A DNA stretch of 56,669 bases, the filler included, from Sphacelaria rigidula (lineage: Eukaryota), in the NCBI GenBank assembly GCA_964200075.2. It is 7 parts of 7 records of this genome, joined end to end, with 100 filler letters (N's around TTAATTAATTAA, not from the genome) between each part and the next. Parts side by side here need not be neighbours in the genome. Positions count along the whole stretch, not along the records: positions 8,111 to 16,120 come from CAXNAA020012654.1; positions 16,221 to 24,230 come from CAXNAA020012655.1; positions 24,331 to 32,340 come from CAXNAA020012656.1; positions 32,441 to 40,450 come from CAXNAA020012657.1; positions 40,551 to 48,560 come from CAXNAA020012658.1; positions 48,661 to 56,669 come from CAXNAA020012659.1; 1 more part is not named here. The stretch is one strand, 5' to 3'. Both the position numbers and the translations under genes were made by a program. Positions 11,437 to 56,268 of the stretch are shown here, in pieces. The notes under the pieces are model-generated. The model did not search any database. It was not told the DNA's origin and saw only the letters and a program-made list of their open reading frames with translations. Numbering within the stretch: the first letter of the stretch is position 1; the number at the start of each line of letters is the position of its first letter.

Positions 11437-11694
11437 TACGGGTCGGACGAATCAATGATTCCTCTGGAAATTACTTGGTTTTAATGCAATCGATTGGTGC
11501 CGTATGAATTCATCCTTGGGCTTTGTTGTAAGCGTTGCGAGATAGGTACGCGCAACCCAGGCACGTGGAACGCCGAGAACATTGCGTGGAGACCTTTTTG
11601 ACCAGCGGTCAACTCTTTTCTATCGGTCAAGCAATCAGGCCTGAAAAATCGTGCATGTGGTGAATCGAACCGGCGATGATTCGTCCGAACCGTG
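11437..11694 (-). mobile_element. MITE family A copy (CA-N6-GGAC termini)
   Basis: TIR TACGGGTCGGACGAATCA ... TGATTCGTCCGAACCGTG; homologous to 14602, 27418, 56014; TSD not readable. Confidence 0.8.
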
Positions 11695-11861
11695 GGAAAA
11701 CTTTCAAACACACATGGTTGACTTGGTGAGCCTTTGGTCTCTTCTGCGAACAGGCCCCCACCCCCCTGTCAAAAACAGTAGAGTTTACCGGCGTTGGCTA
11801 CAAATGTCCATGATTGATGTTACTTGACTCGAATCTCTACAACAAGAATGGGAATATTAGT

Positions 11862-12159
11862 CGGGCTGACAGTCCCGTGCGCTCCTCGCGTGCGCAGAAC
11901 GCGTTTTTGTTGAAATCGGCGCCACAGGCGCCGATTTGGGGTCTACCAAGGCCGCACTTTGCCTGTTTAGGGAATGTATGTACCGCCCTTACCCAGGGCT
12001 TCCGGATATGCGCTGGGTTGGGGTTAGGGTTGGGGATAGCGGTACTTGTAAAGTCGTGTCAACCATGGACACTTGTAGCCCAACGCCGGTAAACTAGTCT
12101 CGTAAAAAAGCACACCCTCGCACACTGAAACGCCCGGATGTCCCCGGACTGTCAGCCTG
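11862..12159 (+). mobile_element. MITE family T with telomere-like tract
   Basis: TIR CGGGCTGACAGTCC ... GGACTGTCAGCCTG; internal GGGTTGGGGTTAGGGTTGGGG. Confidence 0.7.
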
Positions 12160-14601
12160 CGGAACTGTTGCGAGGCGACGCTTGCTGCCTAAGGGTTGAC
12201 CAGGTCAGGCTATAGATCAATTTAACATTGACTACAGATTACTCCAGACATCCAGCGTCGAATTCATGTTTCAGCTTTTTTTTGTAGAGATTGGGGGGGG
12301 AGGGACTATTCTGTTCCCAGATAACGTCGAGAACATTTTCAGAAATTCTCCCCGATAAAAACGATCCCACTATTAACCGGGATATAGTTAACCGTAAGAC
12401 CGCAAGGGTAGTCCATCTGAACCACGCATACATTTTTCAAGTGAAGTTGATGCCGATTCGACAGATGAACTACTCTTGTCTAAGGGTAAATAAATGTACT
12501 GTACTGCATGAGCATAAGCTTGCGCCACCTGCACACACACATTTCCATCGGAAAGTACACTGTGTTTTCCTCAAAACGGTCAAGCATCGGAACCAGAAAG
12601 GAGGAGCGTACGAGCTTCGTGCGCACCAGAGACTGAAGCCAGGCGATCTTCTGTTCCATAACGTCCGGGTCGATGTTATCATAAACGTCTTGCTCCTCAT
12701 CCGACAACATTTGCATTTTCGTAAGCTTGCCTTCAGCTTCCCTATGCCTGTGAGGGGACATGGGAAACATCGTGAAGAACGGCAAAAAATATATATGACT
12801 ATACGAAATGGAGGGCGTGAAGGATTGTGAATTGACTTGAGAAACTGAATAATTTTCCCGAGACATACCTGGATCATGACAATGGACTACACAATCTGGA
12901 TAATGACAATATATTACATTGTCAAAAGTGTACTGCGTACATTATGGAATTGATTGTCTATCGCAATGGACGCAACAGTCGATGTTGCATGCAGTTCACT
13001 TGTCCAGGGTGTGATATCTCCCGCTTGATGCTGCCCGTAAAATCCACAAGAAATTGAGTGCCGCCCGGATGTAGCCATTTCGGAACAGTTTACATACATT
13101 TTTTCTATGTACAAAAGTAATAACCTTGATTCATCAAACTCTGGATGACGTTTAGCAACTCCCACAGAGACAGCCATGGTTGCCTGAAGCGGCAACACAC
13201 AGAGTTTCATGAGGGTACGACAGACGGGAACGGTTCCAACTCAACTCGAATCACCTCACCTGAGCATGACAATACATACTGTATAAGGCATTCGAGTCCA
13301 GCTTACCCTAGATACTCTACACTCAAATAATCAAGGTCTTGTTTTCTAAACTCGAGACACTTCGGCCATAACATAGGAGTAAGACCCGGCAAACTTTATC
13401 CAAGTGATTAAGTCCACCCATACTGAATCCAAGTGATTTAGCATTTGCAATAGTGTGCTTAAGTGATTAACACTACGCACACGCAGTATTTATTAGTACA
13501 CGCAGAGGATAACGGCTACAAAACGTTGTTGGTGGAGTGGTCGGGTTTTACCGTACATCACGCTGCCCGAACGCACCAGACCCCGTGGCCTATTACAACA
13601 GTGGAACACGGTCCGTGCACATATGAATCCTGGATAATGACCAAAACCATCACACGTCACCTGGCAACAAAGGAGTTGAGATGCCCTGAAAGTCGCTTTT
13701 TTTGGTTCCAGGAGCATACCTGTTCACAGAAATGATGACAAATATAAAACATACACGAAGAATCCTGTAAACATGATCATCACGATCATCACGATCATCA
13801 TCATCATCACCGTCCACGTGAACACACTGACAAGCAGCACTGTTTTAATTTTCAGAATGGGCGCCACGTGCATGTGCGTTTGGTAATTTACTTTTCACTA
13901 TTGTACGCGATACATTTTTTTACTATGTAATCTATTGTCCAGGGTGTGATATTTTCGTGCATCCATAACCCATTTCCCAACCAACCATTGTACCGTCTGA
14001 AGACTACACAAGGCGGCACTGACATCACAGTATCTCTTGCGACCTTCCGAAGGTCAAGACCCAGGCCCTGTACCTTTCTTTCCAACCACCCAGTCTACAT
14101 GCCAGCAGTGCATAAATATATTTACGTATCTACATTTAGATTTATTTTATTTTCTTCGAGTACATACTGTACCGAACCCTGTGATCAGTGATTCACCACC
14201 TCTGTATGGCCCGAACCGCTTACTAACAAATAACCCCAAGCATGTCAACCCGAACCGTCATCCCGAACCTTTCAACCCCGAGACCGTCCTCCTCCAATCT
14301 CCCATCCGGGCTGTGGTCATATTCCTCACTTGGGGTATCCAGTCACGCACCCCCCCCTTCACTCCGTCCCACCTATACTCCGAGCTCCGCCCTGCAAAAC
14401 TTATCCACTCCAAGTCCACGTCGCATCCCTACACGCGAAGTACCCCTTACACCGAGTGAAAACCCACAACGTACACACACCCTTCGTCCCGCGTGAGACA
14501 AGCTACGCCCGCTCACCACAGGCCTGCCTGACTTAACTTGTATACCCTCTTGCATTTCAAGTGGGTCGGAGGTGCAAAACAACGAACCGTGTACAACATT
14601 T

Positions 14602-14824
14602 CACGGTTCGGACGAATCATCACCGGTTCAAATCTCCGAATTCATGATTGCTCGAAAGAGGGAAAAATCTTGGCAGCTGGTCCAAAAGGTCTCCGCGCAA
14701 ATTTTGCGTCATTCCACGTGCCTGGGCAGCGCGTACAAAGCCTAGGAATTGATGCGTTCGGTACGAATCAATTACACTAAAATCAAGTGATTTCCAGACG
14801 AATCGTCAATTCGACTGACCCTTG
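14602..14824 (+). mobile_element. MITE family A copy
   Basis: CACGGTTCGGACGAATC ... AATTCGACTGACCCTTG; near-perfect 8-bp TSD CAACATTT/CCACATTT. Confidence 0.85.
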
Positions 14825-15649
14825 CCACATTTTGCCATTGCGTCAAAAACCCATGGAAAAGGTAGACGACAGCACACGCAAGGTACCGAGGGTGTGTTGG
14901 GTAGGGATTCTGCTACACTTGGGTATTCTGAAAAACCGAACTCTAAACCACCGGAAACTTGAGTCCAGTATTGAGGTCGTACTCGACACTACCCAGATAT
15001 AGAGTAATGCGACATTACCAACCTTCACCCAATAATTGGGTAAAGTTTGGAAATGGGACCATCGCAACACAGAAAAAAAGTCGGGAGAGTAAATACCCGG
15101 GTATTCATCATACCCAATACACCTTTGCGAGGTACGTAGAGCGTGTCTCTTGGAATCGGGTTTTGTACCTTTTCTTGCACCATTTCCTGAAACGTGTCGA
15201 AGGTACAAACGGCTGCCATGTACTCTGGAGTGGAGAGTTTGGAAGATCTTGCCCGCCCTTTGCTAGCGTCTCCCGCTTCAGGTTCCACCAACTCTATATG
15301 CGGGAAAACCTATAAAACCGTGTCGACGCAAGTTTGCGGCGGTGGGACAACGTCAAAACTCGACCACTTGGCATTCTTGTGACCACGGTTGGATTCGTAG
15401 GGGATGAATGCTACAACCAACCGACCAAGCAATCACCAATCAAGCAAGCGAGCGAGCAATCAATCAAACACGAGCAGTTGATGACAATAAAATGCAAGCA
15501 AGCAATCACAATCAATCACAAAAAAATGATCATAATCAATCAATCACTTCAAATAATATATCCAAAAAGTCGCAGGGAGCGAGGTGTGGCATATCCGTTC
15601 AATTCAGGTAACACACGCAATTTTTCTCCCAAACCCAGATTGGGGGCGC

Positions 15650-16085
15650 GCGGAGGGAGGGGCATACTCATTTATTGCTCACCATAGTCAATTGACCATT
15701 GGCCACACATCCCTTTCAAGACGGGGGTGGGGAGGGGGGGGTGTACTCATGATCATGCATTGCCATAGTCATGAGACTGTCAACCTCGCATCCATACAAA
15801 GCCGGGACGGAGCACGCCGAGTTTTTGCCGGACCAGGCTTGCAATCAATCACCGAACGCAAAGCGCCGCGGTGTGTTCGGCGAGTCGCATGAAGGGTGAG
15901 CTGCATCCTGTTAAGATTGTTCGGCCTGAAGCCTGCTGATCATCTTGCATTTGGATGACAGCCTCCAATGAGTTGCTTCATTTTCTGGTACTGTCACTTC
16001 CAGAGATAGCCACGACATTTACACTGCCTCTCATGGGTGTCTCGAGACGGGGGGGAGGTGATGGGGGGGGGGGGGGGGGGGGAGC
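15650..16085 (+). repeat. Longest copy of dispersed family G
   Basis: Homologous to 1-140 (-), 4345-4420 (+), 31590-31980 (-), 39505-39735 (+). Confidence 0.8.
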
Positions 16086-16120
16086 TCAGTTTGTGTTGGT
16101 CTTGGTGGTGTGAGCATGGA

Positions 16121-16220
16121 NNNNNNNNNNNNNNNNNNNNNNNNNNNNNNNNNNNNNNNNNNNNTTAATTAATTAANNNNNNNNNNNNNNNNNNNNNNNN
16201 NNNNNNNNNNNNNNNNNNNN
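16121..16220. other. Artificial contig linker
   Basis: N-run with TTAATTAATTAA. Confidence 0.98.
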
Positions 16221-16727
16221 TCGAGAGACTGGCATCATCGATGTTACCAGCATGTACCCAATTTCCCATGTTGTGCCTAAAGGCCGAGCTGTGGAGAAAA
16301 TTCGTCTCTTCGTCTTGCCTGAGTTCCTCAATGATGCGAAGATCAATTTCTCTCTGGCTCTCTTTCTGGACAGCACGCGCCTCTGTGCGCTGAAAAACAT
16401 GTCCTTGAAAAACAGGGCAATAATCCTGTCACCGCTACTGCTGTTCTCTGTCACACACATGCCCCCAAGGACGGTGCTACGGCAAAACCAGATAGATCCA
16501 ATATGAACTTAGGGGGTGTTATTCATCGTCGATTGTCCACCACCCCCAACCGGGCGCTTGACCACACGCCAGTTGGGGGGAGTGCACGAGAGATCAAACA
16601 CTTGTGAAGATATTCTTGACGTGCAGAGTAAAAAACGATACCTATGGTGGTGACCTAACTGTTGTTAGCATTGTGCAGAGGGGTGCGTCAGCTGCGATCT
16701 GGAGCTTTCGTTGATCTACTCAACTGA

Positions 16728-17360
16728 CTGCCTCCCGTCTGCACAGTAGAGCGTCTGCCTATAGAGGTCACAGTGGGTAGTGTAACATGTCAACAAATAC
16801 CCAAATTCGGAACACCTTTGGGAAGAGTTCGTTTTTTCAAAGTACGTCGACATGGTTGAAATGACTCCACTTACCCGTGGGAAAGTGTCCGCTTTGGGTC
16901 CGTTCAAACGTTCGAAGATAATGCGAACAGCACTTTGAATCTTTCCTGGCATTGGAATCTGCCAATCAGTACAGTACCATCACAACTCGACAATTTAACG
17001 TTCTAATTAGAAACCAACGGGCATCAAACTATTTGCAGGTAAGAAGACGGGCATTTTCATAGACGAGAAACCCTGTGTTCCCCCGTGGGGGTTACATCCG
17101 GTCTGAAAACCTATGCTGTCCTTTGAAACTTGGCGGGCGGACGGGGTAGCCGCAGTGCTGTTCGCCACTATCTTCGAACGATTGAACGGATCCAAAGCAA
17201 ACACTTTCCCTCGGGTAAGGAGAGTCATTCCAACCATGTCGAGGTACTATGAAAAAACGAACTCTTTCGTTTCCAAAGGTGTTCCAAATTTGGGTACATA
17301 ATAACATGTTACACTACCCAGTGTCACCTCTTTAGGCTGACGCTCCGCAGACGGCAGGAG
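16728..17360. mobile_element. Foldback/long-TIR element (~200-bp inverted arms)
   Basis: ~16730-16935 is the imperfect reverse complement of ~17153-17360, around a ~220-bp spacer; TSD not identified. Confidence 0.75.
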
Positions 17361-18504
17361 ATATGAATCGGTACAAGCAAGGTTTGGTGCTGTACTAGAC
17401 CGTACCATAACCTGCGGGACAGCACCACACCGTGCAGGAACATGTGGTGCCGTATTGCATATACGCGGTATACGCTTCGTATTGCCTCAGTTTTCATGCA
17501 TACAAGTTTGGCTCGGGGGAGTTATATGCTGTGAGCTGCGATATACGCGTTGCTTACAGCGCGAGCTAGGGTGTGCGTTTGTGCGTGTTTCGTACAGTAG
17601 AATGAAAGAGAGGCATGCAACGTGCAGTACAGACAGCATAGGACTCTCTGCACTCCTTCCTTACAATGTGACGTGGAAAGGACTTGAACAACGCACGGCT
17701 CAGTAATGCCTGCACTGTCCATGCCCGTGCGGCACCAGCGGGTGGGAATGGCGGTGGCGGCGAAGGCCTGGGCTTCACCGCGTGAATCAGCGGCTGCGGG
17801 ATGCCGGCGGGTCGGCGAAGGTATTATTTTCATTACCTCCCCTTTCGGCGAACGGCATCGACACTGATTGCAGAAGCTGCATACGCGGAATAGCTCGCTC
17901 AAAAAATACATCGCTTGGCGAGGAAGCGGACTGGATACTAACAACTGAGGGGTGAAGTATGATGCTTGTACCGGAACCAGGCTGGAAGGAGACACCGAGG
18001 GGAAAAGACATAACGCCTTTGGCGGAGATATGCCGTGTGCCAACACTGGGGGGACAGAATGAATAATCTTTCCCCACTCGGGGGTTCCATAAACATTTCG
18101 ACTTCTTTTGTACGTGAACATGACGCTACAGTAGCCGTAAACACATCATGCGCCGGTGAAGACATTAAGTTGTGGGTGAATTAACTCGGCTGCTGAGGGA
18201 AAGAAACTCCATAGTGGAAGAAAAAACAATTACGCCTGTAGCTGAACGAGACTCTACGGGAGTAGGGGAACAACCACTCAAGCGAGCATGTTTTCGGTTA
18301 TGGAGGTTTTTGCTTAACACGTATTAGAAGCACAAAGTACTGACCCATATAATGACAAATCAGGAACTCAATATGCAACTCGTCGCACTTCTGAGCACGA
18401 AATCGTGAGTTTTATTCCATCCACCGTAATTTCTCAATCGTTTTTTCTGTCAGTACCATGCCCATGCTGTATGGAGTATATTGTATGTGCGCCATAAGGA
18501 ATCA

Positions 18505-18745
18505 TCCTACGATAGGGGGGGGGGGTATTTGGTTGCACGAAAAAAAGGCTTATAAGTGTGTCAGACGACCTACCACACTTGCGGTGCGCTTGTATTTGGT
18601 TCGAAACGATGTCAATCGGCATGAATAAGAGTCACGTCTCTATAACAAGCTCATTCGAGCAACCGTTGCTGCTTTTAACGACGATTTGACCTGGAATTTC
18701 GTGCAACAAATGGCCCAAAATAACCCCCCCCCCCCTATCGTAGGA
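18505..18745. mobile_element. MITE with TCCTACGATAG(G)n TIRs
   Basis: TCCTACGATAGGGGG ... CCCCCTATCGTAGGA; its left part recurs at 32252-32340. Confidence 0.7.
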
Positions 18746-19606
18746 AGACTCTGAGGCTGTACAGCATAATAACAACAATGAACAGTACTTGGAGTGACGA
18801 AACCCCGTGAAGCGTACTGTGCGGCGCGAAAAATCCATACAGCCAAATCCCCGCGACAAACACTGCAGTGTCCCTGAAACCCTGTGAAGCGTACTGTGTG
18901 GTGGAAGAAAACACCCTACAGCTAAACCCCCGCGAAAAACACTGCTCAGTTTCCCTGAACCGTGTAGACGTGCCCCGCAGGGTGCTATCTGTCCACGTGT
19001 GCAGTTAGTCCCAGGTGAAATCTCAGTTTGAGACTACCTACCGCATTTACTGGGAGTACAGTACCACCACCTAGTATTACACTCATTACCGCAAGAGGGG
19101 GCTCGCATGTCAGACACGTTATCCATACTCCCTGTCGTATAGTAGGAAGCACCAGTATCAGTAGTCCATTCCTCCCTACCATCACTCTTCGTTGATACAC
19201 TACCACTATGCAACGTAGCGTATCCCTGCAAACGATATCCCCAAGCCGAAAACGCGACTCGCCTTGCGGAATGGAGTTTGCCACGCACAGTTGCGGATGC
19301 TCCGATGTAGGAGCATCGGCAGGTGGAGATGCACTGGCCAGGGGGGCTGAAGGCTCATGATGCTGTTCATGTGGGTCGTGGTAATACGACACTGGTGCTG
19401 GAGATGGGTGCATTGCTATCTGGTACGGGATGGGATGTGCTGGTAGTGAATGCAGCCTGGTTATGGAGGTCGGTGGGCGTCTTGAGAAGGATATCGTGTG
19501 TGCTGAGGGTGTCGAGTGCTTTGGTGGTGTTTGGGATAGGTTGATGTGTAGTGTGCACTAGGCGGTTGGTATGTGTGTCGTGAGTGCTGTGCTTGGTGTG
19601 ATCGGA

Positions 19607-19951
19607 TTTAATGCGTGAGAGGACCGCGTGCTTAGAGGACTGCGTGCTTACACGGGTGGCAACTGAGATGCCTGCAACCTCAAATTTGGACGTTACAGAC
19701 CTTGTGCAAGATCTGTAACGTCCAAATGTGAGGTTGCAGGCACCCCAGTGGCCACCCGTGTAGAGGACCGCGCCGTAGATCAAAACACCTCAGGATCGAC
19801 GTTTTTCAAAACCAATCGGGCTAGTCTATGCAGATACCAGGCCCCTGACCCTGACCCTAGCCCCAACACTAACCCTGACCCTAACCCTAACCATAGGGAT
19901 GTTCAAATTCTGATGCCGTCCTCTAAGCACGCGGTCCTCTCACGCATTACA
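19607..19951. mobile_element. TGT...ACA (Ginger-like) MITE with CCCTAA-like tract
   Basis: Perfect 32-bp TIR TAATGCGTGAGAGGACCGCGTGCTTAGAGGAC (19609 and 19949); flanks CGGA/CGGG; a shorter relative lies at 23908-24024. Confidence 0.8.
19651..19760. mobile_element. 110-bp hairpin MITE (Tc1/mariner-like, TA TSD)
   Basis: 54-bp arms with 5 mismatches and a 2-nt loop; TA on both sides; removal restores GTGCTTAGAGGACC. Confidence 0.85.
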
Positions 19952-21629: not shown

Positions 21630-22535
21630 ACCACCTCACTTCAAAGCGACGGGTCCGGGTGGGCCACCTCCTGAAATCTTGAGCTTGAACGGGATGGGGA
21701 GGCGTCGGAGATGATATACCATTTTCACAGCAGCGTCTCTGCAGTTTGAACATTTGGCAGGCTGCCTCAGGAAAGGAAATACGTCACCACCAAGGTGCTG
21801 CACAAAAAAAAAGGAGCCGACTGTGGTAACTACGGAAATATTCCACTTGTAGCAAATGCTGCTCAAGTGTTCCTCAAAACCGTAGCCAACGGGTTATGTA
21901 ATTTTCTGGGAGGAAACATATGTCTTCCTGGAAGAGCAATGCGGAGTTGGGCGCCAACGATCGACCACAGACATAATGTTTGTATTACATCCTGGACGAT
22001 GGATTCCATTGCCGAAACCTGCACTAGGTACAGTGTACAGTCTATTGTCTATCGCGATATACGCAATAGGCGACACTGTACGCAGTACACGTTTTGACAC
22101 TTCAACTATTGTCCGGGGTGTGTTGTATTACGCCGACTTCAGGAGTTGGGTTGGACGAGCAACGTCCTACTACACAGGTACTTTCTCGATCTGCAGAAAG
22201 CCTGCGATTCCGTAGACCGCACGCTCCTGTGGGAAGTGCTTGCTCCATTCGGAATCCCGCCGCGAAAGATAACAATCATCCGTATGTTCCACGACGGCAC
22301 GCGATCTCGTGTACATCTAAATTGTGGTGAACTATCAGCGTGGTTCCACCTTTGCCAGGGATTCAGACGGGGTTACGTTTGGAACCTTGATCGATGTGAT
22401 CGCCAATCGGTTCGTGGCGGACACAGTCATCGCCTTGGTTTTTCTAGATGATGCACCAGGAGGTGACGACGGTGGACCCCTGGAAGAGCCGTCGCTGGAA
22501 ATAGTGCGACGCGCGGTGTGGACAAAAGTGCGACG
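21630..22535 (+). pseudogene. RTE-clade LINE reverse transcriptase relic
   Basis: KATGPGG..., LHKKKGADCGNYGNIPLV, LPEEQCG...RSTTDIMFVL|RRLQELG, FLDLQKACDSVDRTLLWEVL, IRMFHDG, CQGFRRG; frameshifted. Confidence 0.9.
21988..22122. mobile_element. MITE family C inserted in the LINE RT
   Basis: 8-bp TSD TTGTATTA; right end reads CACACCCCGGACAATAG on the minus strand; excision restores MFVLRRLQELG in frame. Confidence 0.85.
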
Positions 22536-27075: not shown

Positions 27076-30000
27076 CTATCAGAGAAAATAATAATTAGCA
27101 TGACACGGGAAAAAGTTGGATCGTACGAACTGTCACGGACTCCGGTACGAGGTAACACATATTCTGTGTGAAGCTTAATTCAAGCCAAGACTTGAAAACG
27201 ACGGACCTGAAGCGTCTTGCTTTTATTCGCCTGTTAAATCGGCGTCATGTTGACCTGAGAGTTGACTCAAGGCGTCCATCTGTGGACGCTGAAAGAGCAA
27301 ATAAGCTGTTACTCCAGATACGAGTATACATCAAGGTTACACCTCTGCAGGACTTACCCGTCGACATGTGCGTGTGTCCCATATTTACGATCACAGTTGT
27401 CATATTTCGAACGGATCCACGGTTAGGACAAATCATCACGACTCCAATTCACCAAATTCACGATTTCTTCGGCCTGACTGCCCGAAATGGAGAAAAAACT
27501 TGATCGCTGGTCAAAGGGGTGTCCACGCAACTTTTGCGCCATTCCACGAGTCTGGGCTGCGTGTACCTGAGTTGCAACGCTGCAATAAAGCCTAGGGATC
27601 GATTCGTCACGAGTCGACTCATTATACTAGAACCAAGTAATTTTCAGACGAATCATTACTTGTCCGACCCTTGAACGGATCCAACAGAAGAAAAACGAGT
27701 AGGCTCACCTAGTTCCGTAGTCTGCTGAGGTGCCGAGTTCCCCGAAGCGTCGCAGTTGTAGGCGCCATTTCCGTCCTCGACCACCGTTCGTTCAAACAAG
27801 TTGGTGTAATCGCCACCTTTGTCTCCAACATTTACCCACAAGAATATGGCGTTTTTCCATTCAGTTATGCCCGACATCCTGCTTGCGAGCAATAGGTGAA
27901 AAAGGAAAAAATACGAAGCGGCATCCGGTGTGTGTGTGAGAGAGAGCAACATTACCAGACACGAAACATGAGGGCATAGCCTAAAACGAAAACGTGAAAC
28001 ACAGGCTGCTCACGTAATGTCTTGTAGCGAAGAAAATTACGCGTCTCATGGCGTCACGATTGCACGTTAAGTGTACGTATACCGTACTAGACTTCGGCCA
28101 CATGCACTACTAGAGTGTTCACACTTGAAGGAAACGACAACGGGTACGCGCTATATGCGTAAGCTTTCGACTCAGAAGTCGATTAAAGCACTCCAGAGTG
28201 ACCGTTCTGGCGAATCCCGCCCACTGAACGCTGTGGAATCCGGCCGATGCACTGCCGAAGTGCGCATAAAAGTGGACGGGTCAGTGTAAAGATGCCCTGG
28301 ACAAAATGTGCTACGTGAGGTACCCTTTTTTGGTGTGGGACATAATTTTCAAATCCTGTGCTAGCATACTGGAGCTACATCTGAAAACTATTTTCATCTC
28401 ATTTCACGAGACATCTGTTTGGCTGACGACGATGGGATCTTCACGCACGGCAACTTCATGTACACGTGGCTGTATACTTGCGTGTGCGTATTCATGTATA
28501 TAAATCTTGTGCTCCACAACTTGAAGTACATGAAGTCCGTCAAAGCAGTCTCGGGTTTGTTTTTCCTGCCTTAACCCTCGAAATTCTGGATTTGTTTAGG
28601 GTTGGAACACGTTTTGCTGACCACGATGGGGTCTTCACCCACGGCAACTAAATGTACACGTGGCTGTATACTTACGTATGCGTATTCATGTATATACATT
28701 TTGTGCTCCACAACTTGAAGTACGTGAATTCCGTCAAAGCAGCCTCTGTTTTTTGTTCCTGCCTCCATCCTCGAAATTCTGGATTTGTTTAGGGTTGGAA
28801 CACAATAAATTGCGGGGAATGGTCAAGTCCATCGGTTGCACTTGCAGTGTAAAAAGGATCAGTCGTGCGGAAAAATAGCCGAAATGTGGTGGTTGTGGAA
28901 AAAAACAGTTTCTGCAAAATCGCGGCGAGGGGGTCCGGCGAGATGTTGATCATTAGTCTGGATATTCTTCAGTAATATTCGCTGCAGCGTTCATGTCGGC
29001 TTCTAGTCGAGTCATTTTTCGCTGTTCTTCGAGACCTTCTTATAATGTTTTCCGTCCCCTTGCGCCAGGTACGTCTAATTGGCTACCACAGGTAGCGTCG
29101 CGGTGGAAGACTCCATGTGCCACCATCGAATAACCAAGCAGAAAACGGCTGTATCCAGGACCAGAATTTCTCAATGTTTTCCCCACTCTTCACCCTTTTT
29201 GTGCAACCGTGGACGCATAGGGCCTGGAAAAAATTAGATAAACTGCGTTTCGCGTCAGATGTGTGGACTCTTGCCGAGGAACATTGTCACCATAGCAGCA
29301 GCCGCATCGTTTTTTGCTAGACCTTGCCGCAGGTCGTGCTGGCGGCGCATCAGTACGTTTGAGAGGCCTGAAGACTTTTAGTTTGCTTCCAAAACCCGGT
29401 GATTCAGACGGAGGCGACGCTGAACTGTGATCAACAACTGTTTGATCACCAACAGGAGCGTGGTCGATCGTGATAACACCGTCGGGCTACGTTCACGTGG
29501 TACCTTGAAACAAGTCAGTATCCGTCGACGATGTCGACAACCGCCCACAAGCCGCTGTTATGATGAAATTGAATTTAAACATTGAGTGGAGAGTAGACTG
29601 TTCGACTGAAATGATCAAGGTGCAACTCCGTTGAACGTTTGACGTGAGACTCGGGCGAACAGGGTGGGTCTACAGGTGGAAGTTGAACATTCTAGTTGGA
29701 AGCGGAACAATGTGCTTGACGTTAAAAAATCAAGCCCAAGGCGACGTTGGTTTTGGGCCTTCGATTGGAAGGTCTGACTCGGAAGTCGACCTGAACGTCT
29801 AGTCTTCACGTGAAAAGCAGGGAGCTCGAGTGACCGTCTGACATCTATTGCGAAAGTCCAACTCAAAGGTCAAACTTCCGCGTAGATGCAGTCTTCACTT
29901 ATAAGATCCAGGTCGAACTTTGCGCTTCACTCGAAGTCTGTCCTAAACCAATGACATAGGAATTGAGTGCTTCACCGAAACGTTGCGGGCTTTTTGGCGC

Positions 30001-32819: not shown

Positions 32820-34035
32820 ATTTTCTGTCATGTTACTGCGTCATGTGTAACATATTTCCAATAGATGCCTTTGCACTTTAGTGCTGTTTGCATCTGCCGG
32901 TAATACATGACTGGGTACTGGGACACTGTTCGGTCCACGGGCGTCTGGCTTATTTATGCCCGGGTTTTGGGATGTCTTCGGTTCCGCTGATACCGGAGTA
33001 GGACAAAGTCCTCGCGTTAGTAATAAAGCGGTGGGTATTAAGTACTTAACCTGTGAGCATTGTGCTCTTTTGGTGAATCATCGTCAAAATGATAGGGTTG
33101 GGGACTGGACCAGTATCTACTGACAGTATTCCTGTACCGGCAGTTTTCCTGTACTGCGCCAGAGGCTGCCAGTACAGCCAGTACATACGCATCTTACAGT
33201 ACGTCCTATAGTATGCCTCCTAAACCACATGGAAACCCACCGAAACTGCGCCGCATGAGAGGCAGGAGAGGAGAGAGGATGAGAATAGGGCACACACACA
33301 CACACACTAGAGGGAGACCACAGAATCGATGGACCAATATGTCACTAGCAGCAGCAGGTCGTCGGCTTCAGACCCGACCCGCCGCGACCTCCAGCGAATC
33401 ACGATTTTCGAAGTTTTTCTCTGGGTATAATAACAACTATTTGAAGAAGAAACGTTTTCAAACCCGGGCAGACATCATCGAAGTGGCCCAAAATCACCCA
33501 AAAAATAGCTTCTAGTGAAGCCAAATCGCGTAAAAATACGCCTCCGGCAGGGCGCCTCCGGCGGGGCCCCCTCACCAGCCGGGGGGGGGCGGTGGTCGCG
33601 GCGCAGCCGTGAATACGCGGCTTCTCCGCGAGAACAATGTACTGATAGGACCCAGGAAACTGGCTGCGGAGAGCAGCCAGTTTACCTGGCACTGGCGCGT
33701 AGCGCCAGTCCCCAACCCTACAAAATGACCCTTGATCCTTGTCATTTTGTGTCATACAACTGTGTCAGTGTGACATATTTCCATTAGATGCAATTGCACT
33801 TTGGTGCTTGCTGGCTACATCAGCTGGTTATACATGACTGAGCACTGGGATAATGTTCGGTCCACGGGCGCCTGGGTTATTTATGCCCGTTTTTGGAATG
33901 TCTTCGGTTCCGCGGACACCAGAGTAGAACAAAGTCCTCGCGTTAGTGCGGTGGGTATGATGTTTTTCATCCTGTGAGCATTGTGGTCTTTTGGCGAAAC
34001 ATCGTCGAGATGACCCTTGCTTGCTTCTTGTCAGC
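32820..34035. repeat. Tandem ~290-bp direct repeat x2, first unit split by a hAT MITE
   Basis: 32820-33092 resembles 33745-34013. Confidence 0.8.
33093..33720. mobile_element. hAT-type non-autonomous element
   Basis: Perfect 16-bp TIR TAGGGTTGGGGACTGG and perfect 8-bp TSD CAAAATGA. Confidence 0.92.

Positions 34036-48491: not shown

Positions 48492-48500
<9 letters not shown>
47000..48500. repeat. Irregular array of the palindrome CAATATATATTG and variants
   Basis: Exact 12-mers at 47139, 47224, 47518, 47560, 47730, 48395, 48441, plus many degenerate copies. Confidence 0.85.
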
Positions 48501-48527
<27 letters not shown>

Positions 48528-48560
48528 TGTATGTATGTATGTATGTATGTATGTATGTAT
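48499..48560. repeat. (ATGT)n microsatellite at the contig end
   Basis: Read directly. Confidence 0.95.
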
Positions 48561-48660
48561 NNNNNNNNNNNNNNNNNNNNNNNNNNNNNNNNNNNNNNNN
48601 NNNNTTAATTAATTAANNNNNNNNNNNNNNNNNNNNNNNNNNNNNNNNNNNNNNNNNNNN
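48561..48660. other. Artificial contig linker
   Basis: N-run with TTAATTAATTAA. Confidence 0.98.
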
Positions 48661-49149
48661 ATGGTGCAGTAAGTAATATGTAGCACTCTACCGTTGCGTG
48701 ACGGCGGTCTCATTGAGAGGTACCGCACTTGCTTTACACAAGGAGACGCTATCGCATCAAACCGGCCCGTGTTCGGCAAATACTCACCCTCTGGGTATAC
48801 TTCAATATACATGAAATATACTGTACGGGAGTACAGTAGGGTTCATTTATTTTCGTACTGTACTGTCTATAAATATACTAAACAACAGTATAGGGGCCGT
48901 CACCGCTTGAAGCCTGGAACGTATTGTGGAGAGGTGTGCCATGCGCTCATTTCACAGGTACTCGCGAGTGTGCGACGTGCGACGCCGACGACCTGCTGCT
49001 TTAAAAAGAATGCACGCAACACACTACATACACGTGCGGGGGCCTACAGTAACGCTCTAGTTACGGGCAGCTATCGATGCTGCGGTTTTCATGTATGTGA
49101 TGACACTACAGACTGCACAGGCACCTTCGGAAAGGTCGATACTATAATT

Positions 49150-49620
49150 GTACCCAGTATACACCGGTATTTCGAGATGTCAATATCTACCGCACCCGCT
49201 CGATCGGGTTTTTTCGAATGTCATACCTACGATACCCACGATACCACGATGTCTCGAGGTTTCGATACTTACCTACCGTACTCGCCCAGTCGGGTATTTT
49301 CAAAAATCGTACCTACGATATCACCGTATTTCGATATTTCATTACCCATTGTACCCGCTAAATCGGGTATTTTCCGAACTCATACCTGCGATATACATGA
49401 TACTACGGTATTGCGCTAATTTAACACCTACCGTACCCGCTCAATCAGGTATTTTCCAAACTCATAATTGCGATACCTACGATACCACGAGATTTCGAGA
49501 TTTCAATACCTACCATACCCGTTCAATCGGATATTTTCAAAACTCATACCTACGATACCCACGCAAACCACGGTATCGGACACCCCGAGAAATACCGGGG
49601 ATATATCCGGTAAATACCGG
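49150..49620. repeat. Degenerate ~80-bp tandem array rich in CGATACC/TACCG
   Basis: ACCCGCTxxATCGGG anchors at ~49194, 49280, 49353, 49435, 49517; a related unit at ~50510-50665. Confidence 0.8.
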
Positions 49621-51572
49621 ACGCGATGCGATACCCCGGGTGCAGCAGCTGGTCCCAACTTACGCAAAGGCTAGAAGTTGTCAGGGCAGGTACGTCTTGT
49701 TTTCACAAGTAGTATATACCCAGATTCCCCCTGATTTTCGTGTTCGGATCAATTCGATGAACTTATTTTCATGTGGACTGATGTTCTGGGTAAATGGATA
49801 CAAATATTTTTTCACCGGTACGATGCTGTACATTGTTTCATAATTCATGAAGATGAACATCATACACGATAATATTCCACGTGCATACAAGCAGAGAGAA
49901 AAAAGGAGAAGGAGGACAAGTAACAAAAAAACGTGAGGGCTCGCAGGAGGCATCCAAACTAGATAACGAGGTGCCAAATTACCAAATAAATAACCTGGCA
50001 TATAGCATAGATATGCATATATATGCCGTTATTACTGCGCCATTGCCGGGTGCTCTATATGAAAAAACACGATCACATGGAGAGGCAAACTCTGCCCTTG
50101 CGTACTACTGTACGTCCCCTTGCGTACAACTGCAACACCTTAGTGCCACAAATTACAGCGCTACCCCCTCGGAATGAAAATCTGACCACAGTATTCAATT
50201 TCAAATTTTCCCTTACTGAGTACTCTATCCTCAGAGTGCTCTCGTCCCTGCACCCACGTCAACAACCACGAATATCACCACGCGGTACTCATGATCGATC
50301 CATGGATTGAGTGTCTCACCCTGTCAGCTGATTGCAACATTTCAGCTGAGGATCATGATGGGGTTCTGTGTGCTTTGAGGTCTGCAGGTTAGCGTTGTGC
50401 GTTGTGTGCGTGTGGGGGTGGGGCTGCCCGCCTTGGGCACATCAATAACTTGATTGCCGAACTTGCACAGGGATCTCAAACGCTTTTCCGCACTGCCGGA
50501 TGGCAGTTTTGAAATCGGTACAGAAGGTAAGGCAGGTACCCCGTACCGGTATTTCGGACATCTCATACCCTACCGATACCGACCCAATCGGGTATTTTCA
50601 AGTGTCATACCTACGATACCCACGATACCACAATATTTCAAGATACCAGCACCTACCGTACCTGTTCCTTTCGCAGTCAGTGAACACCGCTAAGCGAACG
50701 GCGTTCACCTTTTATGTTCCCACGGAATAGGCGTTCGTCTCAACTGGGGAACGACCCTTATGTATGGAGAGGTATAGATGGGTCAATCAGGTTTGGTTCA
50801 GCGATTCCTGCCCGCCGCGGGTTGGCGCCGAAGGCGCAAAGGCGGATGGTGTCTACCCGCAGTAAAACATCATGTTTCGACGTCAACACCCTCCCATGGA
50901 TGACATACCTTCGTGTTTTTGTCGCTAGAAAAAGTGTGGTTGAAAAAAAAATGTCATCGCATATGTCCACCGCGTTCTGCTCCTAGTTGGCATCCACGAT
51001 TGTTTTATCATTACGGCGTGCCTTCGCACATCATTTTTATATGGGGAATGTACGGCGAAAAAGGAAGAGTCAGATGTGATTAGCCGTGATTTCACCTATT
51101 TTGTATTAAATTATTGTTTGCGCACATTTGTCCGATCTCTGGAACCCGTGGTCACGTATGTAGGCTCGTCCTTCCACTACCGTTCCTGCTCTTCAGCTGT
51201 CGTGGCTTATTTTGAAGCTGGTTCAAATTACGACCTATTTCATCGGGGTTTCTGTTTTCCACCGAAGGTTTCGATCCAAATATGATATGCTAAGACACGG
51301 CCTTAGTGGCGAGCGGAGAAGGAGTGAAAAACAGTAAAGCCAACCTTTTTTTTATCAAAAATGCGGGGGAAAGTCACGAAGAGGTGATGGACCCCTAGCT
51401 TATAGACTACCACGCCACATACCATCCGTCCACATGATCATGCAAACTAGTACACACCACTCATCGTTGGCTACGGTTGCAACCCTGCAGCATTGAGCAG
51501 GAGTTGAGCACAGGGATGGATGCACTGCAGTAGTTGCGTATGCTGTGTGTACATTTTGTCGGCGAAAACTTG

Positions 51573-52762
51573 CACACGTCGGACGAGTCATTACTCGTCG
51601 AAACGAGTGCACTCGTTAATGTTTCTTGAAAACACCACGAGTACGGCTCGTGTGCTCGAGTTATTTATTTGTCTTCACCAAGACCGAAGACTCGTGTACT
51701 GGAGTCATGATTTTTTCCACCACGAACAATTACTCGAGTGCTAGACCTATGAATTTTCTCCGCCACGAGCAATGACTCGAGCGCTCGCCCTACTATTTTT
51801 TTCCACCACGGGCAATGACTCAAGTACCCGCCCTATTATTTTTTGCCACTACGAGCAATGACTCGAGTACTCGCCCTACTAATTTTTGCCACCACGAGCA
51901 ATGAGTCGAGTGTTCGCCCTGTATTTTTTTCACACGCCGGACGAGCACGAGTATGACTAGTGGCACTCACACTCGTTGGGCTGCTCGTTGGCGGTAAAAA
52001 TTGATAGGGTGAGTACTCGAGTCATTGCTCGCTGTGAAAAAAAATAATAGGGCGGGCACTCGACTCATTGTTCATGATGAATGACTTGGGTGGAGTAGCC
52101 AGCAATCCGACGAGCAAATCATTGTAATGAGCCCTTCGACGATCTTGAACCTAGAATCTCCAAGTTAATATGCATGTCTGCACATGTGCAAGCGTCAAGC
52201 TCCAAAGTTAGTTTTCAGTTTATCCAAGCACCCCCACACACATAATGATCAGAGTTTTACCAAAGCAGCGGAGAGTATCTCTCGAGTAGTACATTTACAT
52301 TTTATTAGGGCGAGCACTCGAGTCATTGCTCGCTGTAAAAATATAATGACTAGAGTACACGAGTGCTTGCTCGTTCTTGAAAAAAATGACTCGAGCACAC
52401 GAGTCATTGCTCGTTGTGAAAAAACTGAATGACTCGAGCACACGAGTCGTTGCTCGTTGTAAAAAGAAGCGATGACTCGTTCACACGAGTCTTGCTCGTT
52501 GTGTTTTCAAAAACGTCCACGAGGGCAGTCGTTTCGACGACTAGTGACTAGTCCGACGAGTGATTTTTTTTCACCACGAGCAATGATTCGCGTACTCGCC
52601 CCATCAATGTATTCCCACAACGACCAATGACTCGAGTACTCGCCCTCTTCGTTTTTCTTCACCACGATCAACGATTCTAGCACTCACCGTAATACTTTTT
52701 CTCACCACGAGCAGCCCAACGAGTATAAGCCACGATTCATTCTCGTGTTTGCCCGACATGTG
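51573..52762 (+). mobile_element. MITE family B (outer copy) with ~43-bp internal repeats
   Basis: CACACGTCGGACGAG ... TTTGCCCGACATGTG; perfect 8-bp TSD AAAACTTG. Confidence 0.9.
51931..52562 (-). mobile_element. MITE family B (inner copy, inverted, nested)
   Basis: CACACGCCGGACGAG ... CTAGTCCGACGAGTG; 8-bp TSD ATTTTTTT. Confidence 0.88.
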
Positions 52763-55351
52763 AAAACTTGACTATCTTCTTTCATCGTAGGGACCAGGGT
52801 TTGAACGGCGTGGTGAGATGGCCAACCCCCTCGCGGACGCGGTCATAGACGCAATGCATGTACAAAGCTGCGCGTTGTCTGAGTCCTTTTCACGTCGCAT
52901 TGTGGGCAGAGAGAACAGACGGTGCTGCCGTGGAGGTTCTGCATGTTGCCCGCTCCTCTCTCACATCCTGCTGCACGAAACATGCAGACACGAACTCAAA
53001 ATACACTGCATTCAAACAGCGCAGACAGTACGGACTGTCCGTATTGTTCACAAACGGCCATATACCGCTTCACGAATTTCACCGTCCTTTTCTGATAGAA
53101 AGCTTGAAGATTCGCTTCGACCCAAATCGAGTTACAATATCGAATTTCGCTAAAATTACTTGCCATCGCTCTTTTTTTCGATGGAAAAATGCTGCAAGAC
53201 ACTCACTCAGCACGTTATGCCGTCGGTGCGCGAAGTGCCATAGACGCCTCCATCAAAGCGCGTTCTCGATGTCGAGACGGCCACCAAGTGCGTCGACACT
53301 ATGCTCAAACGCGGTGCGGAATTTACGAAATAGACCGATTTCAACGGTTTGGTGATTGCGGCGTTTTTTACATGTATTTTCTGTCGAAAGCCCTAGTGAG
53401 AGCTCCTAACCCGTTTACAGTACTGCCGTTGCATACGAAAGAACTCGTATCTTTTAATAGTGCTACGCGCTCGGGCCATGTTTTTGTCAAAACAAGTGAT
53501 ATCGAAATGAAGGTGGGAGCTCATACGCACAAAGTAAAGATGACAAACCTCGGGGGATGGAATCCAAATTTCGTCCATCCAACTGGTGATAAAAGTCCCA
53601 TGACACCAGCAGGGCGCGGCAGCAGTATTGTGCTACGATAGAAGTAATTTTCTGTCGAACCGCGGGTTCGCATTCACATATTGTCTCGTCTTCGCCGTTT
53701 CTGTGCTATGGCATGAACACTACCTCTTGCCTTCGTACTTCAGCGCCCATCTCCCACACCAAATTATGTTCATGCCTGCCATTCCGGCGATAGAATGTCG
53801 TGGCCGGCGCACGTTGTGCGTGCACCGCTGTGATGCACACTGCATCCGCGCCACACCTTCGGAGATGCACACGATACTCGCGCTGTTTTTTTCTCTCTGT
53901 CTTCAATATTTCGTTGCGCTCACCGTGTCCTTGCCGCGCCCGTCACCTTTGACCCTTGACTCCCTGTGCAGGCGGCCTTTAGGTCAAGGAAATCGCTCGG
54001 AGCACATGGACGGAGGGTGCAGATACCTCGGCGGGACTGTTTCACCGCGGCATGCCCCGTCCTGTGGGTCGGGGATGGAGAGATTCCGTCGGCGGTACGC
54101 GAGGCTTCCGCCTGGCTGTGGGATAGGGGGTTGTGTGAATTTGCCAGGCGTCTACGGAAAGCCTCCATGCTGTCGGTGTGAAGGATGTAACAACTCCGTG
54201 ATAAATGGACGGAGGGGGGGGCGGGAAGTTAAACCTCACTTTGGATCCACGATAGTCTGCCCCGCCGGAAGTTGGGGTGACGGTTCCTACCCGCCTGTCA
54301 CGAAGAATTTTAAATCCTTCTGTGGTGGTGGTAAATTCTTTGTCTCCACATGTCGGCGCCGACGCGTTGTGGTGTTGGGAGCGGCAGCGATCCGTGAGGA
54401 CGGCTGCTGTCGGGGTTTGCGGATGTGTTGCGCTCTACGCCGTAGTATGGAGTCGTGTGATAAATTCGGCGCATATCGCACAACAGGTATCCTTGTTTGG
54501 CCCACTGAGTCGCGGACTTGGGTCGTGGGTTCTGGGTACGAGGCGCCTCGTATTGCGTGGTTCAGTTGTCCTCTGTGGCGCGGTGTTCGGCGGGCTGATT
54601 TGTTTTTGTCCTCCTTCTCGGCTTTCTCGTATTTTGTAGCCTTCCTCAGTGTGTGTTCTTTGTTGTCGGTGTCTGTGATTGTATAATATCTTGGTCTCTT
54701 GGGGGCTGAGTGTATGTGGTTTATACCTGTGGTAGTGAGGTCTACACATATGCCATCGTTTGGATTTTCGGTCTCATGTTTTGTTTTAATTTTTGCCATA
54801 GGACTTGGGTTTTGGTGCACGATGATACGCGCCGAAGCGACGGCGCAGAGACCGTTTGTTTAACGACGACGTTTTTGCGTTGCCTCTACTTGATCCTTCG
54901 AGGACCTGTGCGAATATTTCAGTAGCAATCGTTCCACGGTCCGACCTTTTTCATTTGTGCACTTGTGGCATCCGAGTGTTCCCGTACCGTGCTTTGCTGC
55001 GGCACGCACGCAGGGTCACGGTCTCTCCACCCGGCGGTTACTCCGCCGACGGGCGAGTGATCCTGGCGCGTGTTCAGATGTTTTTTAGATCAGCTTCTGT
55101 GACCTAAAAAATGACGGGGGTTCAAGTGGTTGGCGAGCATCCGTCTCGCCTTCGAAGCTCTCCACTCATCGACTGGCGACAACCGGATGTCTTGTGACCG
55201 GTGGGCGACTCTCAGACGTGGACGATGCGGATAATTTTCGGGTATGCATCGATGGGGCTCAGTGTGCCGGCTTGTTGTCGGCTGTGCATTATTCTGGTGT
55301 CGGTGCAATCCGGCGCCATATTACCATAACCGTGGGAGGTACTTCTCATTC

Positions 55352-56135
55352 AAAATGCCCCGCCCCTCCCGGACGACTAAAGCAAGCAAAAAATAAGGAC
55401 CCCCCCCCCCGGCGATGGGTCCCTCGCCGTAAGTGGGATACTTGCTTTCATCCTACATAAAGTGCGACAACCAATCAATCCAAATCAATCATCATAATTC
55501 GCCCGCTGTGGTCAACGTCTCTAATCCAACGAAAAATTACAAGTGTCGGGCTAGTTAACGATTCGTCTGGATATTACTTGGTTTTCGGAATTGATTTCAG
55601 CGTCACAACCTAGGTACGCGCTGCCCGAGGCGCCTTTAGCTTTTGACGCTCTTATTATACTGTGTACAGAGTACTAGTGTCAATTAGAACATGATCATAC
55701 ATTGTGATGCAAGCGGAAGATAATGAACTATATTCAGCGTTCCAGGCAGGGAAGATGGTGCTGATTGTAAGGTGACAAAATCCAAGCGAAGTGGCCCTCT
55801 CATGAAAAATGCCCCGCCCCTCCCGGACGACTAAAGCAAGCAAAAAAGGAGGACGCCCCCCCCGCCCCCCCCCCCCCCCCCCCCGGCGATGGGTCCCTCG
55901 CCGTAAGTGGGATGCTTGCTTTCATCCTACATAAAGTGCGACAACCAATCAATGAAAATAAATAATCATAATTCGCCCGCTGTGGTCAAGGTCTCTAACC
56001 CAACGAAACATTACAAGGATCGGACTAGTTAACGATTCGTCTGGATATTACTTGGTTTTTGGAATGGATTCGTACTGCACGAATCCATCCCTAGGTTTTT
56101 ATTTCAGCGTCACAACCCAGGTACGCGCTGCCCAG
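55352..56135. repeat. Local direct duplication (55352-55631 and 55806-56135) that includes a MITE A end
   Basis: AAAATGCCCCGCCCCTCCCGGACGACTAAAGC... occurs twice. Confidence 0.88.
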
Positions 56136-56268
56136 GCACGTGGAATGACGCAAAAGTTGCGTGGAGACCTTTTGAACCAGCGGTCAAGATTTTTCTCTTT
56201 CGAGCAATCAGGCCTGCAAAAAGCGTGGATTCGGTTATTCAAACTGGCGATGATTCGTCCGAACCGTG
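56014..56268 (-). mobile_element. MITE family A copy
   Basis: CAAGGATCGGAC ... GATTCGTCCGAACCGTG. Confidence 0.82.

Follow-up and report, generated by a model that had tools for sequence, protein, structure and literature searches.

Window composition and element families

The stretch of Sphacelaria rigidula DNA analysed here (the window, 56,669 nucleotides) consists of seven unlinked 8010-nt pieces, with spacers of the form N44-TTAATTAATTAA-N44 between them. The initial annotation had given the coordinates 11437-56268, a span that crosses six of the seven unlinked pieces. An exon in the window is 99% identical to a protein labelled Sphacelaria rigidula by NCBI, in keeping with a brown-algal genome. 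When the 130 open reading frames (ORFs) of at least 95 aa were compared with Pfam, only two matches stood at or above the curated cut-offs:

2614-3102: Ion_trans/PKD_channel exon, Pfam match at or above the curated cut-off
36238-36768: RT_RNaseH, Pfam match at or above the curated cut-off

In the ESM Atlas the channel exon retrieved its family alone and no informative taxon. Three weak matches below the cut-offs in these ORFs (DUF7541, Peptidase_C98 and DUF3792) do not represent DNA-transposase domains. The window also holds 329 ORFs of 58-94 aa, 150 of which gave no Pfam match; a further 150 ORFs gave a single weak rve match, and four ORFs of the 58-94 aa class, at 55803-56668, lay outside the scan. 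In all, Pfam detected no DNA-transposase domain among the ORFs scanned across the 56 kb. Searches of the window with Rfam (gathering thresholds) and ARAGORN returned no RNA genes. A spliced-leader motif, looked for as a sign of dinoflagellate origin, had 0 matches, and that origin was rejected. A KDZ relic had been proposed at 29000-29980, but when 58 ORF fragments (35 aa or longer) from 28175-31102 were searched at E<=0.1, none matched KDZ and none exceeded a curated Pfam cut-off.

Three families, A, B and C, were confirmed as real elements. Family A comprises four full copies and one partial copy, with a full length of about 255 nt (223-257 nt) and pairwise identities of 68-79%:

11438..11694, plus strand: A1, left tip damaged (ACGGGTCGGAC) and reading ACGGG; flanks alike at 1/8 positions, no target-site duplication (TSD)
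14602..14824, minus strand: A2, 223 nt with internal deletions; right end CAAGGGTCAGTC
14594-14601 and 14825-14832: TSD of A2, CAACATTT/CCACATTT, 7/8
27418..27673, minus strand: A3, 256 nt; ends CACGGTTAGGAC / CAAGGGTCGGAC
27410-27417 and 27674-27681: TSD of A3, AACGGATC, 8/8
56014..56268, plus strand: A4, flanks alike at 4/8; left part within a 474-nt tandem segmental duplication
55540..55631, plus strand: A5, partial, left 57 nt and an internal piece

The partial copy A5 originates from the segmental duplication 55400-55596 / 55874-56070 and is no separate insertion. The tips of the family are CAAGG and CACGG, the consensus left end being CAAGGGTCGGAC, and the heptamer ACGAATC reaches 7.8-15.7 per kb in the copies against 0.39 in the window. 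With 4-5 occurrences in 56 kb, family A may be a high-copy MITE.

Family B consists of two copies, one nested inside the other:

51573..52762, plus strand: B1, 1190 nt with B2 and about 550 nt when B2 is removed; ends CACACGTCGGAC / CACATGTCGGGC
51565-51572 and 52763-52770: TSD of B1, AAAACTTG, 8/8
51931..52562, minus strand: B2, 632 nt, in opposite orientation to B1; ends CACACGCCGGAC / CACTCGTCGGAC
51923-51930 and 52563-52570: TSD of B2, ATTTTTTT, 8/8

Tandem repeats of 43 nt lie inside both ends of B1, whose repeat array is the insertion point of B2; in this family the arrays begin about 60-90 nt in. The subterminal regions are asymmetric, since beyond the terminal inverted repeat (TIR) the two ends differ in type. 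ACGAGT occurs at 12.6 per kb in family B and at 0.55 in the window.

Family C is represented by one 135-nt copy and by partial copies, and CAATAG is concentrated in the former (22 per kb in C1 versus 0.34 in the window):

21988..22122, plus strand: C1, 135 nt; ends CATCCTGGAC (N4 spacing) / CACACCCCGGAC
21980-21987 and 22123-22130: TSD of C1, TTGTATTA, 8/8
12864..13013, plus strand: C2, like C1 in its interior and its right end (CACACCCTGGAC); no TSD, and a left boundary that is uncertain
13890..13948, plus strand: C3, family C-type right end CACACCCTGGAC

The C-type ends annotated at 13013 and 13948 are both present and share the same right end; a 3.7-kb element starting at 10237 may have C3 as its right end. 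Family A (223-257 nt) and C1 (135 nt) show the features of MITEs, which are short, non-coding, bounded by TIRs and TSDs and present in multiple copies, and no Pfam domain was found in ORFs overlapping family A or C elements. Family B, at about 550-630 nt, is better termed a non-autonomous element than a MITE.

A fourth family, D, has TAGGG termini and is separate from A, B and C; within this window, its ends are of the canonical hAT type:

33093..33720, no strand assigned: family D element, 628 nt; 16-nt perfect TIR TAGGGTTGGGGACTGG; perfect 8-bp TSD CAAAATGA
24910-24959: family D fragment

Target-site duplications and the shared end signal

Perfect 8-bp TSDs flank four insertions of families A, B and C (A3, B1, B2 and C1), A2 being flanked at 7/8, which leaves one or two TSD-supported copies per family. 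We scanned the window without bias for CA..TG ends whose TIRs match at 9/14 or more and whose flanks of k=7 to 10 are perfect. At k=8 six matches were obtained, namely A3, B1, B2, two internal repeats of B and one segmental duplication; at k=7 there were three, all weak at 9/14, and at k=9 and k=10 there were 0 in the window. True elements were recovered only at k=8. Paired ends are alike for about 12-14 nt, after which the similarity stops. The target preference of Ac-type hAT elements is nTnnnnAn, a pattern that none of the six TSDs fits (five from A, B and C and one from D, a small sample).

The initial annotation held that the three families share CA-N6-GGAC ends together with 8-bp TSDs. 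Most of this stands: 12 of 15 ends carry CA with (C)GGAC at positions 8-12, hence GGAC at positions 9-12, an A follows at position 14 in 14/15, and four TSDs are perfect. It does not extend to every end or copy, as one C end has N4 spacing, one B end reads GGGC instead of GGAC, and two A copies (A1 and A4) lack a TSD. Some partner ends had also been misassigned; they are in fact CACATGTCGGGC for the right end of B1, CATCCTGGAC (N4) for the left end of C1 and CAAGGGTCAGTC for the right end of A2. CACAC opens three of the four ends in family B and likewise in family C.

The CA...(C)GGAC signal is common to the three families beyond chance. Three random 20-mers starting with CA shared any 4-mer at one offset in 112 of 400,000 draws; the families have a 5-mer in common. 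Over positions 3-20 the best cross-family identity is 13/18 for A-B (null share 0.0015), 11/18 for B-C (0.012) and 10/18 for A-C (0.023). Families A and B have TCGGAC[G/T]A[A/G]T[C/T]A in common, and their subterminal heptamers are one base apart (ACGAATC and ACGAGTC). The interiors are unrelated, as first described: after removal of the terminal 20 nt on both sides, cross-family blastn gave no match at E<=0.01. By itself CA-N6-GGAC is no signal, since its 34 matches in the window compare with 30.8 +/- 5.5 expected and show no enrichment. Matches to CAC-N5-GGAC at 18044, 25535 and 25904 were considered as element ends and rejected, having neither family similarity nor a TSD.

Superfamily assignment

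The hAT terminal consensus is YARNG. Family D at 33093 has the CAG/TAG-like kind of tip that is canonical for hAT; in families A-C, YARNG is matched by a single type of end, the CAAGG of family A, and not by CACGG, CACAC, CACTC, CACAT or CATCC. From this mismatch it had been argued that CACAC fits no hAT. However, the autonomous hAT-2_Ec32 of Ectocarpus (Repbase hAT-2_ESi) has CACAC-GTGTG termini (PMC12477816), so the YARNG rule is not strict, and the terminus is in part already catalogued for a known family. Its likeness to B and C is a comparison over five terminal bases only; it has a brown-algal host, a 21-bp TIR and an 8-bp TSD that its curators 'assumed' (PMC12477816). It differs in being 8.9 kb long and coding, whereas A, B and C are non-coding and measure 135-1190 nt, and in its CACAC start, as against CAAGG / CACGG in family A.

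An undescribed transposon system had been suggested, but the 12-nt TIR, the 8-bp TSD and the asymmetry of the subterminal repeats correspond to the textbook hAT layout (PMC3942097). According to the same paper, hAT elements have 10-25-bp TIRs and 8-bp TSDs, with 12-bp TIRs in BuT2; the TIRs of about 12 nt and the 8-bp TSDs found here fall within this description. The short Drosophila elements related to BuT2 resemble A-C in their 12-bp TIRs, 8-bp TSDs and non-coding nature, and these hAT MITEs likewise keep their outermost parts while interiors are unrelated or deleted (PMC3942097). Compared with a new transposon system, ordinary hAT-type cut-and-paste is the better fit. What the elements themselves show is where they begin and end, how long their TSDs and TIRs are, the repeats just inside the termini, and ends that are more alike than chance allows; the assignment to hAT is indirect, since no transposase lies within the window. 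On balance we regard it as somewhat probable that A, B and C are non-autonomous elements mobilised by related transposases, most likely hAT. The original proposal of one transposase lineage for all three is borne out to this extent, as the ends are alike beyond chance and related transposases making 8-bp staggered cuts are the most likely source.

On this hAT-type reading, A, B and C would be old, non-coding, MITE-like cut-and-paste DNA transposons, and autonomous elements elsewhere in the genome would supply related transposases in trans. Each end would have three parts: the CA tip, as the site of cleavage and strand transfer; the TIR of roughly 12 nt, closing with (C)GGAC; and inner family-specific repeats, ACGAATC in A, ACGAGT(C) in B and CAATAG in C, which are presumably transposase-binding sites. 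Integration would proceed through an 8-bp staggered cut that leaves an 8-bp duplication. The superfamily would most likely be hAT, and more precisely the lineage of brown-algal hATs that ends in CACAC (Ectocarpus hAT-2).

Alternative sources of the transposase

We consider it unlikely that A, B and C descend, as first proposed, from KDZ elements (Zisupton/Dileera-type) as non-autonomous forms. KDZ elements, among them Zisupton and Dileera, have 8-bp TSDs (PMC12730594 and PMC11588098), are abundant in brown algae and form the dominant 8-bp-TSD group in Ectocarpus, with 8 families and 6403 copies in 1.8% of the genome. Their termini there were curated as complex and tandem-repeated (PMC12477816), which recalls the arrays near the ends of family B; A and C have simple 12-nt TIRs from which terminal tandem repeats are absent. 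Unlike A-C, KDZ elements are giant (9-30 kb) and their TIRs long or complex, being long or of low identity in Ectocarpus (PMC12477816) and 236 bp in Cryptococcus KDZ1 (PMC11588098). Ectocarpus KDZ termini are mostly GGG-type (GGGGA, GGGTG, GGGGG, GGGTC or GGGGC) or else CAGTA, and never CAC (PMC12477816). Kyakuja elements have CA..TG termini but 7-bp TSDs and no TIRs (PMC12730594), and the supposed relic in the window had no Pfam match. There is likewise only a small chance that the three families are moved by transposases of a brown-alga (stramenopile) specific clade that makes 8-bp TSDs and is not canonical hAT, be it the 'P-like' lineage of Ectocarpus, considered a likely new clade/superfamily, or a KDZ offshoot with minimal 12-nt TIRs. 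Under this view, at the same low probability, recognition of the ends would be bipartite, with the CA tip and an invariant (C)GGAC at positions 8-12, the heptamer specific to each family coming next.

P elements obey the terminal rule CANRG, and TSDs in the P superfamily are 7-8 bp. Both family A ends fit CANRG. P-1, P-2 and P-3_Ec32 have CA..TG ends with CAAGG-CCTTG termini (PMC12477816), the CAAGG tip being like that of the family A consensus left end. That family A, and perhaps A, B and C together, belongs to this brown-algal 'P-like' lineage, which its curators regard as a likely new clade in Ectocarpus, is nevertheless quite unlikely: the Ectocarpus elements have 7-bp TSDs and 36-39-bp TIRs (PMC12477816), compared with 8 bp and about 12 nt here, and the B and C tips CACAC, CACTC and CATCC lie outside CANRG.

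It is improbable that A, B and C are served by unrelated partners belonging to different superfamilies and share GGAC by coincidence or hindsight. Family C is the least firmly linked (best identity 10-11/18, with one differently spaced end), and on its own the motif is no commoner in the window than chance predicts; against this, random triples rarely share even a 4-mer, the 8-bp TSD and roughly 12-nt TIR are common to all families, and A and B agree at about 12 further positions. It is very improbable that the families represent a superfamily or clade with 8-bp TSDs that is new or unclassified, marked by a conserved bipartite end of CA tip and GGAC at 9-12. The TSDs are off the hAT target pattern and the window holds no classifiable transposase, but such an argument builds on absence in 56 kb. 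The 12-nt end is absent from the Ectocarpus family table, which gives 5-nt termini only, while each structural feature is already typical of hAT and a brown-algal hAT with CACAC termini exists (PMC12477816). CACTA/EnSpm was excluded: the Ectocarpus members (CACAG / CACCC termini) have similar CAC tips but a 2-bp TSD (PMC12477816), and TSDs in this group are 2-3 bp against 8 bp here.

In the literature we found no family-level TE description for Sphacelaria, only plant and insect papers on searching for brown-alga hAT MITEs, and nothing relevant on YARNG/CANRG or on hAT-2_ESi / hAT-2_Ec32 / hAT-7_DR. To our knowledge, curated brown-alga transposon libraries are essentially those of Ectocarpus alone, and families A, B and C are a useful annotation for such libraries. 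Their shared 12-nt end is a simple handle for finding the autonomous partner. Were the partner hAT-2-like, a hAT lineage rare in Ectocarpus would have amplified MITEs in another brown-algal order; were it not hAT, the end signal would help to define a poorly characterised 8-bp-TSD clade. Either outcome would be an incremental step in transposon biology. Other points weigh against hAT. The family A ends (CAAGG / CACGG) are nearer to the Ectocarpus P-like CAAGG than to CACAC. In Ectocarpus, hAT is a rare group that covers 0.05% of the genome, compared with 1.8% for KDZ, which also makes 8-bp TSDs.

Three element families and their common end

Mapping of the N runs divided the window into seven pieces of ~8010 nt with N44-TTAATTAATTAA-N44 spacers between them.

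Pieces and spacers of the window
1-8010, 8111-16120, 16221-24230, 24331-32340, 32441-40450, 40551-48560, 48661-56669: pieces
8011-8110, 16121-16220, 24231-24330, 32341-32440, 40451-40550, 48561-48660: spacers

Because the window is made of separate joined pieces, families A, B and C (small non-coding elements sharing a CA...(C)GGAC end) are spread over six unlinked pieces, and features on different pieces have no physical linkage. The initial annotation had placed its transposon system at 11437..56268; the elements are indeed present in this span but it is not a single locus. The claim that three families share an end and 8-bp target-site duplications (TSDs) stands, except at the left end of C1 (CATCCTGGAC, with N4 spacing), the right end of B1 (CACATGTCGGGC) and the right end of A2 (CAAGGGTCAGTC).

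Copies of families A, B and C and associated features
11438-11694: A1, full family A copy, left tip damaged, TSD 1/8
14602-14824: A2, full family A copy, TSD 7/8
27418-27673: A3, full family A copy, TSD AACGGATC (8/8)
56014-56268: A4, full family A copy, TSD 4/8
55540-55631: A5, partial family A copy
55400-55596 and 55874-56070: tandem segmental duplication, 474-nt period, 93% identity
51573-52762: B1, perfect TSD AAAACTTG
51931-52562: B2, inside the 43-nt tandem array of B1, perfect TSD ATTTTTTT
21988-22122: C1, perfect TSD TTGTATTA
~12864-13013: C2, C1-like interior and right end
13948: third C-type right end

Family A is a repeat of ~255 nt with four full copies and one partial copy, A5, which arose from the segmental duplication that copied the flank and left 57 nt of A4. 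Long poly-C runs border this duplication. The family A copies are only 68-79% identical to one another, indicating that the family is old. Family B consists of two copies at one place, B2 being nested in B1 in inverted orientation, and the tandem array of B1 resumes beyond the insertion. The left end of B1 aligns with the right end of B2 over ~80 nt and its right end with the left end of B2 over ~75 nt; these crossed alignments indicate that family B has two unlike end types, and its inverted repeats are limited to the first 12-14 nt. A possible 3.7-kb element, single copy and with a C-type right end, lies at 10237-13948 and contains A1, C2 and a repeat bearing telomere repeats. The perfect 8-mer ATATTTTC is found on both its flanks, in register only if two extra left-end bases precede CA; alternatively, this single-copy region possibly has ATCACA..TGTGAT ends and a 6-bp TSD.

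CA was found in 15 out of 15 ends, GGAC at positions 9-12 in 12 and A at position 14 in 14. The bare CA-N6-GGAC motif is not enriched in the window (34 matches vs 30.8 +/- 5.5 expected). We scanned the window blind to GGAC for CA..TG ends with at least 9/14 matches in the terminal inverted repeat (TIR) and perfect flanking repeats. With 8-mer flanks this gave six matches, namely A3, B1, B2 and three others accounted for by internal repeats of B and the segmental duplication; 9- or 10-mer flanks gave none and 7-mer flanks three weak matches. A TIR-first scan agreed and added a fourth kind of element. The best cross-family identities over positions 3-20 were 13/18 (A-B), 11/18 (B-C) and 10/18 (A-C), with null rates of 0.0015, 0.012 and 0.023 among random CA-starting 20-mers. 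Any 4-mer was common at one offset to three independent CA-starting 20-mers in 112 of 400,000 trials, whereas the actual match across the ends is a 5-mer, CGGAC. The interiors are unrelated, as first reported: after trimming 20 nt per end, no cross-family blastn match was obtained at E<=0.01.

Coding content and search for a transposase

The window looks eukaryotic and gene-poor, and Rfam and ARAGORN detected no RNA genes in it. When the 130 ORFs with lengths from 95 aa upwards were searched against Pfam, matches reaching curated cut-offs were restricted to an ion-channel exon and an RT_RNaseH remnant (36238-36768); three more fell below cut-off, with no transposase domain among them.

2614-3102, minus strand: exon of a polycystin/ion-transport channel gene (Pfam and protein identity)

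This exon shares 99% identity with a protein labelled Sphacelaria rigidula at NCBI (55% with a Laminaria digitata protein), and the source was consequently treated as a brown alga. A further 300 ORFs of 58-94 aa, covering the rest of the window except for four such ORFs at 55803-56668, gave a single weak rve match belonging to an LTR-retrotransposon remnant. No DNA transposase was thus found by Pfam among these window ORFs, so the autonomous partner is not nameable from the window. The Kyakuja-Dileera-Zisupton (KDZ) relic proposed at 29000-29980 was not borne out: at E<=0.1, none of the 58 ORF fragments (minimum length 35 aa) spanning 28175-31102 matched KDZ or scored above the curated cut-off of any Pfam family, and the translated ORFs of this region look unlike coding sequence.

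Candidate mobilisers

The common 12 nt make up nearly the entire TIR, and a dense short repeat particular to each family follows immediately on its inner side: ACGAATC in A (7.8-15.7 per kb vs a window density of 0.39), ACGAGT in B (12.6 vs 0.55) and CAATAG in C1 (22 vs 0.34). The subterminal repeats of A and B differ by one base, and TCGGAC[G/T]A[A/G]T[C/T]A is common to their ends. A, B and C would be non-autonomous cut-and-paste elements moved in trans by related transposases cutting the target with an 8-bp stagger. These transposases are somewhat more likely hAT than not. Short TIRs, asymmetric motif-packed subterminal regions and 8-bp TSDs form the classical hAT layout, which the elements match. 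However, the target pattern of Ac-type hAT, nTnnnnAn, fits none of six TSDs, and no transposase was seen in the window. The hAT TIRs span 10-25 bp with 8-bp TSDs, those of BuT2 being 12 bp, in the text available from PMC3942097. The window also holds a canonical hAT-type non-autonomous element whose interior is unrelated to those of A, B and C.

33093-33720: family D, 628 nt, 16-nt perfect TIR TAGGGTTGGGGACTGG, perfect 8-bp TSD CAAAATGA
24910-24959: family D fragment

The objection that CACAC fits no hAT is contradicted for brown algae by the Ectocarpus library table (PMC12477816, supplementary file 1), which lists hAT-2_Ec32 with CACAC-GTGTG termini and hAT-1_Ec32 with TTGGC termini and 8-bp TSDs; the likeness to hAT-2_Ec32 covers five terminal bases only, and hAT is rare in Ectocarpus (0.05% of the genome vs 1.8% for KDZ in the same source).

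KDZ is an unlikely mobiliser. Its abundance in brown algae, the tandem arrays of family B and the equal TSD length (8 bp also in the parts available of PMC12730594 and PMC11588098) speak for it, but its ends look unlike those of A, B and C in tips and TIR style: KDZ-1 to KDZ-5 and KDZ-N1 are tabulated with 8-bp TSDs, tandem repeats and GGGG-, GGGT- or CAGTA-type complex termini (PMC12477816). Less likely still is the Ectocarpus P-like clade, P-1, P-2 and P-3_Ec32, labelled 'likely new clade/superfamily' by the curators in that table; its CAAGG-CCTTG termini fit the CAAGG tip of family A, but it has 7-bp TSDs and long TIRs (36-39 bp). That A, B and C have unrelated partners and share the motif by coincidence is improbable, and a truly unclassified clade is the least probable mobiliser. 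CACTA/EnSpm was ruled out by TSD length, the tabulated Ectocarpus EnSpm having CACAG / CACCC termini and 2-bp TSDs (PMC12477816).

No family-level transposon description for Sphacelaria was found in the literature searched, including the available text of the Phaeoexplorer preprint. On present evidence A, B and C are new families of a known kind of element, Ectocarpus termini being compared at five bases only; the same termini may already be in Ectocarpus library supplements, Repbase or Dfam.

Other repeats in the window

The ~600-nt element at 35366-35966 is a Tc1/mariner-type MITE and adjoins the LTR-retrotransposon remnant (rve 35080-35280, RT_RNaseH 36238-36768). Assembly or sequencing artefacts may explain the long poly-G/poly-T runs that lie beside the edges of pieces and a 9-N gap (40033-40041).

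Further repeats
35366-35966: 34-nt TIRs (91%), TA on both flanks
16049-16097, 24331-24441, 40046-40155, 40348-40454: poly-G/poly-T runs
16749-17345: long-TIR structure, ~600 nt, arms of 76 and 101 nt, 86-89% identity
38635-38845, 45210-45425, 43091-43838, 49159-49596, 47097-48406: satellite/tandem arrays (units 14, 9, 123, 82 nt) and ~54-nt dispersed AATATATATTG-bounded repeats
8209-8451, 11807-12052, 1104-1169: TTAGGG-like runs in a repeat family of pieces 1 and 2
19609-19949: element with 35-nt TIRs (97%), internal 56-nt palindrome and degenerate CCCTAA telomere-like run
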